The position numbers and the translations under genes are program-made. The notes below the pieces were generated by a model. That model worked only from the letters and a program-made list of their open reading frames with translations, did not search any database and was not told the DNA's origin. From Escherichia coli (GTDB lineage Bacteria > Pseudomonadota > Gammaproteobacteria > Enterobacterales > Enterobacteriaceae): a stretch of DNA of 64,000 nucleotides. The DNA lies in assembly GCF_044647545.1 (NCBI RefSeq), contig NZ_CP172818.1. One strand, given 5' to 3'. Positions 14,510 through 18,765 of the stretch are shown here, in pieces (positions within the stretch are counted from its first letter, which is position 1; each line of letters begins with the position of its first letter).

Positions 14510-15529
14510 TTACTTCTTATGACGAATACGCGGGTTCACCACGCCGTACAGCAAATCGACCAGCAGGTTGACGAGGATAATCATCGTCGCCACCAGCAAT
14601 ACGCCGCCCTGCACTACCGGATAATCGCGGCGTTGCAGTGCGTCAATCAACCAGCGCCCCAGACCGGGCCACGAGAAGATGGTTTCAGTCAGAATCGCCC
14701 CCGCCAGCAATGTTCCCACCTGCAGGCCGATAACGGTCACCACCGGCAGCATCGCGTTACGCAGCGCATGGACGATAATCACCCGCATCCGGGTAAGACC
14801 TTTGGCACGCGCGGTGCGGATATAATCTTCGCCCAGCACTTCCAGCATCGAGGAGCGCGTCATACGCACAATGACCGCCAGCGGGATGGTACCCAGCACA
14901 ATGGCGGGTAGGATCATATGGGCGACGGCATCGATAAAGTTACCGTCTTCACCCCAGATGGCGGTGTCGATCAGCATAAAACCGGTTAACGGATTGGAAT
15001 CATCGAGGAACACCATGTCGCTCACACGACCGGAGACAGGCGTCAGGTTCCAGTGCACCGAAACCAGCATGATCAGCATCATGCCCCACCAGAAAATTGG
15101 CATCGAGTAGCCGGTCAGCGCCAGGCCAACCGCTGTGTGATCGAAAATGGAACCACGTTTAACCGCAGCCAGCACACCAACCGGAATACCGACTGCCGTC
15201 GCAAAAATCATCGCGCAGACGCCAAGTTCCAGCGTAGCCTGAAAGCGCGGCACGAACTCTTCCCATACCGGAATTCGGCTTTTCATGGAAATGCCTAAAT
15301 CACCGTGCATTACGCCCCAAATGTAATGGAGATACTGCTGCCACATCGGTTTATCTAAGCCGAGTTCAGCCAGCAATTGCGCGTGACGCTCTGGGGAGAT
15401 CCCACGCTCGCCCGCCATGATCATCACCGGATCGCCCGGGATCATGTGGACAAAGGCAAATGTGAGAAGGGTAATACCGATAAACGTGGGGATGACGAGT
15501 CCCAAACGTCGGAGAATAAACTGCAACAT
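14510..15529 (-). CDS. dppB: Dipeptide ABC transporter permease DppB
   Basis: 339-aa polytopic membrane ORF in the expected operon position. Confidence 0.9.
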   Translation of the reverse strand: MLQFILRRLGLVIPTFIGITLLTFAFVHMIPGDPVMIMAGERGISPERHAQLLAELGLDKPMWQQYLHYIWGVMHGDLGISMKSRIPVWEEFVPRFQATLELGVCAMIFATAVGIPVGVLAAVKRGSIFDHTAVGLALTGYSMPIFWWGMMLIMLVSVHWNLTPVSGRVSDMVFLDDSNPLTGFMLIDTAIWGEDGNFIDAVAHMILPAIVLGTIPLAVIVRMTRSSMLEVLGEDYIRTARAKGLTRMRVIIVHALRNAMLPVVTVIGLQVGTLLAGAILTETIFSWPGLGRWLIDALQRRDYPVVQGGVLLVATMIILVNLLVDLLYGVVNPRIRHKK

Positions 15530-15602
15530 AACCCGGATTCTCTATAATGACCCGCAGCCTGGAACTGCGTGTCTGTATTGCTCACAAATCAATTCCCGCC
15601 TT

Positions 15603-15672
15603 TGTGGGACAGGGAATGAAGTATTGCTGCCGGATGGCGCTGCACGCAGAGGCACAGCGCCACCGGGTATGG
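15603..15672. repeat. REP-like palindromic stem-loop in the dppA-dppB intergenic region
   Basis: Imperfect palindrome ccggatggcgctg...cagcgccaccgg in the 150 bp spacer downstream of dppA; a candidate REP or attenuating hairpin. Confidence 0.45.
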
Positions 15673-15679
15673 CTTTTAA

Positions 15680-17287
15680 TTATTCGATAGAGACATTTTC
15701 GAAGTGATGTTTGCCTAATGGATCAACCACATAGCCTTTAACTTCTTTGCGTACCGGTTCAAACACGGTGGAGTGAGCGATGATCAGTGCCGGAGCCTGA
15801 TCGTGCATCACGACCTGTGCTTGTTTGTACAGTTCAACACGTTTATTGTGGTCGTCGGTAGCACGCGCCGGTTGAATCAGATCTTCAAACGGTTTGTAGC
15901 ACCATTTTGAGTAGTTGGAGCCTTGTTCAGAGGCGGCGCAGCTGAACAGGGTGGCGAAGAAGTTATCCGGATCCCCGTTATCGCCAGTCCAGCCCATCAT
16001 TACCGTCTGATGCTCGCCATCTTTCGCACGCTTGAGGTACTCACCCCATTCGTAGGTGACGATTTTGGCCTGCACGCCCACTTTCGCCCAGTCTGCCTGA
16101 ATCATCTCCGCCATGCGGCGAGCATTCGGGTTATACGGACGTTGTACTGGCATTGCCCACAGGTCGATGGAGAAACCTTTTTCCAGACCCGCTTCTTTCA
16201 GCAAGGCTTTCGCTTTTTCAGGATCGTAAGTGTAGTCCTGAACGTCGTCGTTATAGCCCCACATGGTTGGCGGGATCAGGTTTTTCGCTGATACGCCCGC
16301 GCCCTGATAAACTGCTTTGATGATGGCGTCTTTGTTCACCGCGTAGGTCAGAGCCTGGCGAACTTTCACGTCATCCAGTGGTTTTTTCTGCACGTTATAC
16401 GAGAGATAACCGACATTCAGCCCCGGCATTTCCATCAGGTTGATGGATTTATCCTGCTTCATGCGGGCGATATCTGCCGGGTTCGGGTACGGCATCACCT
16501 GGCATTCGTTCTTCTGCAATTTCGCGTAACGCACGGAAGCGTCAGGAGTAATAGAGAAGACCAGCGTATCGATCTTCGGTTTGGTGCCCCAGTAGCCATC
16601 AAACGCTTTATAGCGAATACGGGAATCTTTCTGGTACTGCTGTAACTGGAACGGGCCGGTACCGATTGGGTTGAGATCCAGTTTTTCCGGTGTACCGGCT
16701 TTCATCATCGCGTCAGCATATTCTTTTGACAGAATAGAGGCGAAGTCCATTGCCAGGTCAGCGAGGAACGGCGCTTCCGGGCGAGTCAGCACAAACTGAA
16801 CGGTGTTATCGTCCACCTTTTTCACTTCGCTGATCAGCTCCGGCAAGCCCATGCCTTCAAAGTATTCGTAGCTGCCGCCAGAAACTTTATGGTACGGGTT
16901 TTGCGCGTTTTTCTGACGATCGAACGAGAACACCACGTCATCGGCGTTCAGTTCGCGCGTCGGTTTGAATTCTTTATTGTCGTGCCACTTCACACCTTTA
17001 CGCAGATGGAAGGTATAGGTTTTACCGTCTTCGCTGACTTCCCACTTTTCAGCGAGGCCCGGGATCACTTCGGTGGTGCCGATTTTAAATTCAACCAGAC
17101 GGTTATAAAGCGGTACGGAAGAGGCGTCATAGGTGGTGCCGGAGGTAAACAGCTGCGGGTTAAACCCTTCCGGAGATCCTTCTGAGCAATAAACCAGAGT
17201 TTTAGCCTGAACACTTGCTGCGACGGTCATAGCCACCAGGCTGAGACCAAGCTTCAGCATCCCTGACTTTTTCAAGGAAATACGCAT
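15680..17287 (-). CDS. dppA: Periplasmic dipeptide-binding protein DppA
   Basis: 535-aa ORF with N-terminal signal peptide (MRISLKKSGMLKLGLSLVAMTVAASVQA); solute-binding protein family 5. Confidence 0.9.
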   Translation of the reverse strand: MRISLKKSGMLKLGLSLVAMTVAASVQAKTLVYCSEGSPEGFNPQLFTSGTTYDASSVPLYNRLVEFKIGTTEVIPGLAEKWEVSEDGKTYTFHLRKGVKWHDNKEFKPTRELNADDVVFSFDRQKNAQNPYHKVSGGSYEYFEGMGLPELISEVKKVDDNTVQFVLTRPEAPFLADLAMDFASILSKEYADAMMKAGTPEKLDLNPIGTGPFQLQQYQKDSRIRYKAFDGYWGTKPKIDTLVFSITPDASVRYAKLQKNECQVMPYPNPADIARMKQDKSINLMEMPGLNVGYLSYNVQKKPLDDVKVRQALTYAVNKDAIIKAVYQGAGVSAKNLIPPTMWGYNDDVQDYTYDPEKAKALLKEAGLEKGFSIDLWAMPVQRPYNPNARRMAEMIQADWAKVGVQAKIVTYEWGEYLKRAKDGEHQTVMMGWTGDNGDPDNFFATLFSCAASEQGSNYSKWCYKPFEDLIQPARATDDHNKRVELYKQAQVVMHDQAPALIIAHSTVFEPVRKEVKGYVVDPLGKHHFENVSIE

Positions 17288-18690: not shown

Positions 18691-18765
18691 GGCGCGTCTT
18701 ATCAGGCCTACGTCGAATCGAACCTCCCCGCCCCCGGGGGTTCTCTTCCTCATGAGCTACAGATG

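Follow-up and report, generated by a model that had tools for sequence, protein, structure and literature searches.

A REP-derived hairpin downstream of dppA and its probable role as a 3' exonuclease barrier in the dpp transcript of Escherichia coli

The window analysed here is a stretch of 64,000 nucleotides from an Escherichia coli chromosome (contig NZ_CP172818.1), which carries the dppABCDF operon on its minus strand, transcribed from right to left in window coordinates. All of dppA, dppB, dppC, dppD and dppF were identified with NCBIfam equivalog models, and a 251-nt query across the region matched several complete E. coli genomes with 100% identity. The genes that concern us and the spacer between them are as follows.

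15680-17287, minus strand: dppA, the gene of the periplasmic dipeptide-binding protein (NCBIfam equivalog NF043070, 1178.8 bits, full length; ORF list)
15680-15682, minus strand: TAA stop codon of dppA
15530-15679, minus strand: dppA-dppB spacer, 150 nt, the short allele without a BIME insertion (alignment with the K-12 spacer of 307 bp)
14510-15529, minus strand: dppB, the first permease gene (NCBIfam equivalog NF008161, 756.8 bits)

A first-pass annotation of this DNA had placed a 150 bp spacer between dppA and dppB at 15530-15679, coordinates which prove exact when set against the ORF list and the NCBIfam models, and had drawn attention to a palindrome within it. The palindrome (ccggatggcgctg...cagcgccaccgg on the plus strand, with arms at 15630-15642 and 15655-15667) is indeed present, but it is just one of three structures in the spacer, which, when folded whole as sense RNA (-55.1 kcal/mol, z -2.36, equalled by 4 of 200 shuffles), forms three hairpins. 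A permissive scan (E<=10) of 15300-15900 on both strands with the curated covariance models of Rfam 15 returned nothing relevant, the sole two hits, to a plant-virus pseudoknot and a miRNA, being at chance level. An internal promoter for dppBCDF was considered and rejected, as no sigma-70-like site was found in 15400-15800; the 'internal promoter' known from genomic SELEX in the literature sits between dppB and dppC, outside the dppA-dppB spacer. The elements of the spacer, in the direction of transcription, are listed below.

15667-15670, minus strand: ATAC microhomology at the empty BIME site (K-12 alignments, K-12 sequence and allele counts)
15630-15666, minus strand: hairpin 1, relic of an inverted REP pair, with its 5' arm at 15652-15666, its loop at 15646-15651 and its 3' arm at 15630-15645, including a bulged U at 15634 (fold and shuffles, copy number, orthologue alignment)
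15589-15619, minus strand: hairpin 2, weak and terminator-like, followed by UUGAUUUGUG (hit of a consensus terminator scan)
15574-15588, minus strand: near-invariant single-stranded leader UUUGUGAGCAAUACA (alignment of 68 distinct Enterobacteriaceae sequences)
15549-15573, minus strand: hairpin 3, a conserved, covarying stem-loop upstream of dppB (fold and covariation)
15506-15548, minus strand: translation-initiation region of dppB, comprising AYUAnAGAGAAUCCGGGUU, the ATG at 15527-15529 and codons 2-8

Hairpin 1, which corresponds to the flagged palindrome, is a structure of 37 nt in the sense RNA, with a 15-bp stem interrupted by one bulged U and a loop of 6 nt. Its folding energy is -27.3 kcal/mol, compared with a mean of -17.4 kcal/mol in dinucleotide shuffles (z -3.46; none of 200 as stable); the first-pass annotation had named the absence of a stable predicted hairpin as evidence against its reading, and the calculation yields a stable one. 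In the short allele, 13 unpaired nucleotides separate the TAA of dppA from the first stem base. The stem is followed by CAGCAAUACUUC, in which a U tract is absent, which argues that hairpin 1 is not an intrinsic terminator, and the terminator scan does not pick it up. Directly 3' of the stem lies a C-rich stretch, CUUCAUUCCCUGUCCCAC, with C minus G amounting to +7 over 15596-15670. In E. coli strain N96 the palindrome carries four changes, three of which fall in the loop, the fourth converting a G-C into a G.U pair. Across the Enterobacteriaceae, the sequence of the dppA-adjacent part of the spacer turns over between genera while strong structure is kept, 78 of 79 distinct sequences having a z below -2 relative to shuffles (mean z -5.5).

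Hairpin 2 is of a different order of stability (-9.6 kcal/mol, z -1.2, with 23 of 200 shuffles as good). It fits the pattern of a terminator loosely, but given its z of -1.2 and the lack of a Term-seq 3' end at the K-12 equivalent it was rejected as a candidate, and it is probably not a working terminator. In other genera, a much stronger hairpin is found at this position.

The palindrome had been described as 'REP-like', a term which is appropriate by descent but not by copy number or by the ends of the element. In keeping with REPs, hairpin 1 is an imperfect GC-rich palindrome within the range of about 35-40 nt that forms a stem-loop, and it is extragenic yet transcribed, at the 3' end of a gene and between the genes of an operon. 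It does not, however, belong to a dispersed family with hundreds of copies per genome. Of 5,426 complete E. coli genomes, 5,421 gave one place each for a 49-nt query containing the palindrome, whereas a 49-nt Y-type REP from the K-12 spacer, run as a positive control with the same settings (blastn, word 11, E<=10, with which shared stretches of less than about 20 nt go unreported), found at least 40 places in every genome. Hairpin 1 also lacks the GTAG/CTAC tail that forms the context for RAYT recognition and cleavage, and no tail motif of the GGCCTAC/GTAGGCC type occurs in 15530-15679. The 8-nt head GCCGGATG is, we presume, the only part of hairpin 1 that matches the classical REP consensus.

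The descent from REP sequences emerges from a comparison with 80 orthologous dppA loci of other Enterobacteriaceae, from which every dppA-dppB spacer was extracted (106-333 nt). In Trabulsiella, Leclercia, Superficieibacter, Pseudenterobacter, Pseudescherichia and others, the same position is occupied by a much longer hairpin of two inverted REPs (GCCGGGTGGCGCTACGCTTGCACTGGCCTAC-loop-GTAGGCCGGGTAAGCGTAGCGCCACCCGGCA), whose flanks (TTAAAAGC... and ...CCGGCAGCAGTGCTTTATTCCC) are shared with E. coli, and the E. coli flanks and outer arms align with the inverted REP pairs of Trabulsiella, Leclercia, Superficieibacter, Citrobacter and Salmonella. Formally aligned, the palindrome of E. coli corresponds to the outer arms of the REP pair, the central 26 columns, which hold the GGCCTAC...GTAGGCC tails, being missing. 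As a further 18 copies of this tail motif lie at other places in the loci compared, those genomes carry it as a genuine dispersed repeat, and the match of hairpin 1 to the outer arms of intact orthologous REP pairs identifies it as a REP relic. On the strength of these alignments, hairpin 1 is what remains of an ancestral inverted REP pair after its two 'head' halves were fused into a single, cleaner stem; it is REP-derived, with its membership of the repeat family lost. Some genera with spacers of 106-113 nt have no REP at the dppA-adjacent site. Klebsiella, Raoultella, Enterobacter and relatives (loci L009-L014, L018, L023, L036, L066, L075 and others) have another GC-rich palindrome downstream of dppA (CCCTCTCCC...GGGAGAGGG, often with repeats of the GGGTGAGGG type behind it), which suggests that in these genera a second repeat family fills the same functional slot.

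Between E. coli strains, the spacer differs by an insertion. In K-12 it measures 307 bp, with an extra 157 bp between CCATAC and CCGG, directly 5' of hairpin 1; the insert consists of a Z-type REP, an IHF-site-type linker and an inverted Y-type REP, together with short flanks, and is bounded by a 4-nt ATAC repeat. The empty site lies between 15667 and 15666 in the window, and the BIME occupies about 1432-1588 of the K-12 locus (L001). The long allele, called where at least 80% of the K-12 query was covered, accounts for 3,250 of the 5,426 E. coli genomes (~60%) and the short form for about 2,170 (~40%); the long form also occurs in E. albertii, the short one in Escherichia sp. E1V33. Because the hairpin of other genera directly follows TTAAAAGC..., the short spacer looks like the ancestral arrangement, with the BIME inserted later. 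With the insertion, the distance of hairpin 1 from the stop codon of dppA grows from 13 nt to 170 nt, and a Z-type REP comes to lie about 40 nt from that codon. In the 64-kb window as a whole, just one canonical REP tail motif was found, in a lone half of a Z-type REP (GGCGCGTCTTATCAGGCCTAC) at 18701-18721, upstream of dppA.

The K-12 sequence is identical to the window through the palindrome and its 3' flank, and published K-12 RNA data were transferred to the window with the dppB start codon as anchor and a check on the K-12 locus. The positions concerned are the following.

15628, minus strand: equivalent of the dominant K-12 RNA 3' end (3705889), 2 nt past the last stem pair of hairpin 1
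15431-15520, minus strand: C-rich and G-poor tract near the start of dppB, candidate rut region for the loading of Rho (C minus G)
15406, minus strand: equivalent of the peak of the Rho termination region (K-12 3705667), 123 nt into dppB

The Term-seq table of Adams et al. (2021, eLife, PMC7815308, supplementary file 1) contains a dominant 3' end of the class 'orphan' at 3705889 on the minus strand, which falls between ...GCAGCGCCAUCCGGCA and GCAAUACUUC (in the longer form, between ...GUGCAGCGCCAUCCGGCA and GCAAUACUUC), has read counts of 46,345 and 209,104 and is listed three times, the table having one tab per growth condition. A stable in vivo RNA 3' end is thus located at the 3' base of the stem, in K-12 and in identical sequence, and hairpin 1 accounts for this 'orphan' entry. 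The same table lists no 3' end at the other spacer structures, hairpin 2 included, and has no entry between 3705889 and 3706189, and hence none at the two canonical BIME REPs of K-12. Further downstream, a Rho termination region is reported with its peak at 3705667 (Rho score 2.06, p 3.6e-5; PMC7815308, supplementary file 2), across which DirectRNA-seq, counted in 800-nt windows, falls from 234 to 64 reads in untreated cells and from 250 to 141 reads with bicyclomycin. The uniform coverage across dppA-dppB that would have spoken against the first-pass reading is therefore not what is seen in K-12; the windows, however, being 800 nt wide and centred inside dppB, the step is not resolved to hairpin 1. 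About half of the step is Rho-dependent and about half persists with bicyclomycin, the latter of which may reflect differential stability or incomplete inhibition. Just upstream of the Rho-peak equivalent at 15406, the tract at 15431-15520 has a C minus G of +10 to +11 per 60 nt; the operon averages -1.3, with its 95th percentile at 8.

A tiling-array study (PMC4299497) independently reports that in E. coli transcription breaks within the dpp operon; according to the same study, Abouhamad & Manson (1994) described a single dpp transcript. All of the RNA data derive from K-12 and hence from the long, BIME-bearing allele, the window carrying the short one, and no transcript data from a short-allele strain were found in the literature searched. 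A separate and very abundant 3' end lies in the dppA 5' UTR at about 17382 (K-12 3707800, minus strand), 95 nt before the start codon of dppA and upstream of the known GcvB target site (Term-seq counts 804,330 and 3,491,085; Rho score about 1.1); it may represent a leader-derived RNA or a product of premature termination. In Salmonella TIER-seq data, the dppA entries are limited to the dppA 5' UTR.

In addition to hairpin 1, the spacer contains a conserved element at its dppB end. Apart from the stem of hairpin 3, the 60 nt adjoining dppB are nearly invariant across genera, reading (A)UUUGUGAGCAAUACA-GAC...GUC-AYUAnAGAGAAUCCGGGUU-AUG, and in an alignment of 68 distinct sequences from the Enterobacteriaceae UGAGCAAU does not vary, while conservation of its flanks is 90% or higher. 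Hairpin 3 itself (-12.7 kcal/mol, z -4.2) covaries in a sequence-only MAFFT alignment of the 68 distinct sequences, in which 84.8% of the cells pair, compared with 26-47% after a shift of the 3' partner by 1-3 columns, 8 of the 11 pairs show changes on both sides, and 81 cells are doubly changed, compared with 31 +/- 4.7 in shuffles, a number reached by none of 500. The frequent G.U pairs point to a structure of the sense-strand RNA. The conservation extends into the gene, where dppB codons 2-8 are frozen at synonymous sites (TTG in 50 of 54, CAG in 54 of 54, CTC in 51 of 54 and the rare CGA in 51 of 54) and codons 9-15 vary freely. The leader is single-copy, with no paralogues in E. coli, and no Rfam match to it was obtained in the scan of 15300-15900. 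Judged by this pattern of conservation, the dppB leader has every appearance of a real conserved RNA element, which plausibly sets the translation of dppB and hence the access of Rho.

Two candidate cis pairings within this region, which would occlude the start codon, are both possible and invariant: one between AUGUUG and codons 7-8 (CGACGU), and a long-range pairing of the leader with the start region, proposed by RNAalifold. Seed-only duplex predictions lend no support to a pairing of GcvB, OmrA or OmrB with the leader, the seed regions of GcvB R1, GcvB R3, OmrA and OmrB falling at background percentiles 41, 11, 66 and 40, respectively; the verified GcvB-dppA pair, the control for the seed-only duplexes, ranks in the top 1%, and in full-length duplex folding even this control lies within background. 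In Buttiauxella agrestis (L064) and Entomohabitans teleogrylli (L076), insertions of about 130 nt are found at the apex of hairpin 3, the base of the stem being kept; judging by the ERIC primer sequences, we assume that the former insert resembles an ERIC/IRU element. Three Kluyvera loci (L044, L059, L071) share linked changes, from UCCGGG to UCAGGG before the ATG, from CGA to AAA at codon 7 and from GGA to GGT at codon 10, which may point to an interaction within the translation-initiation region.

Taken together with the K-12 data, hairpin 1 is probably a 3' exonuclease barrier which, in combination with Rho termination and decay downstream, leaves a stable dppA-only mRNA and thereby an excess of dppA. 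This reading builds on the stability of the hairpin, its REP descent, the 3' end mapped in vivo in K-12, the Rho-sensitive fall of coverage in dppB and the C-rich tract that precedes this fall. The very stable hairpin, devoid of a U tract, would form in the dpp transcript 13 nt past the dppA stop codon. Transcription would often stop short of the end of the operon, in part halted by Rho early in dppB, and the remaining downstream RNA would be less stable than the dppA part. Exonucleases acting in the 3'-to-5' direction would then trim the transcript back until hairpin 1 halted them, so that a long-lived dppA-only mRNA would remain, ending 2 nt past the stem, with the result that far more DppA binding protein would be made than permease and ATPase. 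We favour blockage of exonucleases rather than termination at hairpin 1 as the origin of the 3' end because the pattern fits the general model of Dar & Sorek (2018, PMC6061677), according to which transcripts ended by Rho are shortened as far as a protective stem-loop, in some cases a REP. By the same reasoning hairpin 1 would lengthen the life of the dppA mRNA, and the short allele of the window would be expected to behave like that of K-12; reports on how half-life depends on the stem, or on longer species in mutants of PNPase, RNase II or RNase R, were not found in the literature searched.

The first-pass annotation had anticipated a binding protein made in excess of its permease and ATPase, and this expectation is supported by the K-12 3' end together with the fall in coverage. 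Its suggestion that the palindrome stabilises the upstream mRNA or attenuates read-through agrees with the position of the K-12 end at the stem and with the Rho-sensitive drop, which do not separate the two effects.

The same 3' end could be read differently if hairpin 1 were an attenuator, at which polymerase pauses or terminates, either intrinsically or through Rho promoted by the BIME/REP, so that the end would be primary and untrimmed. The end does lie just 2 nt past the stem and the C-rich CUUCAUUCCCUGUCCCAC follows directly, with the excess of C over G noted above; but the absence of a U tract, a published Rho peak about 220 nt further downstream, in dppB, and the substantial read-through into dppB (64 of 234 reads) make this decidedly unlikely. 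An effect on translation is another way in which the stem could act in the short allele, by stalling terminating ribosomes and lowering DppA through trans-translation, which the BIME would relieve. REPs less than 16 nt from a stop codon are reported to depress translation (Liang, Rudd & Deutscher 2015, as summarised in PMC12306157), and hairpin 1, with 13 unpaired nt between the TAA and its first stem base, is within this range; the BIME moves it to 170 nt, with the Z-type REP about 40 nt from the stop codon, and both alleles are common, at 60% and 40%. The stop-proximal rule, however, rests on canonical REPs, and in the highly expressed dppA a built-in brake would run counter to the reading in which DppA is in excess. 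We consider such an effect unlikely to be the main one, although it is compatible with an exonuclease barrier and does not exclude it.

It also has to be asked whether hairpin 1 is of any consequence to the cell. As a neutral fossil, it would be a decaying REP pair whose effect on the 3' end is incidental, differential expression being set by the dppB leader and Rho. The loss of the REP tails, the free turnover of the dppA-adjacent region between genera, where some spacers of 106-113 nt are without a REP, and the fact that strong conservation is found in the dppB leader rather than in hairpin 1 are all in line with this, and since a 3' end would form physically at the base of a hairpin even on a neutral relic, the data show an effect and not selection. 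Yet strong structure after dppA is kept in every genus (the 78 of 79 sequences with z < -2), the decay has left a near-perfect 15-bp stem, the N96 variant within the species spares this stem, and the sole dominant 3' end listed in the spacer sits at it, so that we regard the fossil as improbable. Somewhat better placed, and in our view possible if tentative, is the proposal that the true regulatory core is an undescribed structured dppB leader, common to the Enterobacteriaceae, that throttles or regulates translation of the permease, while the REP relic merely caps the dppA message; if this were true, poor translation of dppB would expose the C-rich early coding RNA to Rho. It is, finally, barely credible that the spacer encodes a small antisense protein. 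PGAP annotates a CDS of 75 aa (WP_001696297.1) in strain GPEC606 and others (298-525 of locus L082, on the long allele), and an ORF of 47 aa is found on the plus strand at 15547-15690 of the window, but the ORF runs through REP/BIME sequence, its length and C-terminus differ between the two alleles, it is unannotated in K-12 and most genomes, the underlying sequence is not conserved between genera and no promoter-like site was found. The hypothetical protein was rejected as a translation of REP/BIME sequence that looks like an annotation artefact.

If hairpin 1 acts as an exonuclease barrier, a hairpin after the gene of the binding protein would let one promoter yield DppA in large excess over DppBCDF, which other binding proteins use as well, for example in haem uptake. 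The polymorphism, with the BIME in about 60% of genomes and the empty site in about 40%, could make DppA output differ between E. coli lineages, and both this common polymorphism and the conserved structure ahead of dppB may bear on the ratio of binding protein to permease. The history of hairpin 1 is that of a decayed repeat turned into a single-copy, structurally cleaner hairpin which still marks an mRNA 3' end, an element of the kind that repeat-based annotation would miss.

In overall terms, the dpp spacer is one more case of a well-known device and carries little surprise. Newbury, Stern, Higgins and co-workers reportedly described, in 1987-88, REP/BIME elements as mRNA stabilisers in transport operons, at malE-malF and hisJ-hisQ. 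As at these sites, a GC-rich extragenic palindrome stands in dpp directly after the gene of a periplasmic binding protein, inside the operon, and, folded in the mRNA, delimits a promoter-proximal transcript at its 3' end, with more binding protein than membrane components; unlike the REPs of malE-malF and hisJ-hisQ, hairpin 1 is single-copy, is without GTAG/CTAC tails and has its head halves fused in a longer, near-perfect stem. BIME-1 or RIP elements consist of two inverted REPs that flank an IHF-binding linker. The 157-bp insertion of the K-12 type has this same architecture, with true multi-copy REPs, whereas the window is without a BIME and its palindrome neighbours the insertion site rather than being a part of the BIME.

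With the stop-proximal REPs (Liang, Rudd & Deutscher 2015, per PMC12306157), hairpin 1 shares a stem that starts 13 nt after the stop codon of dppA, but it is non-canonical. A parallel in mechanism is found in the Rho-terminated transcripts of Dar & Sorek (2018, PMC6061677), where, as in dpp, a hairpin without a U tract constitutes the steady-state 3' end and Rho termination takes place downstream. The dpp case differs from these in that the role of exonucleases is one we infer from the likeness, and in that the event occurs within an operon, where it would set the ratio of one gene product to the next.
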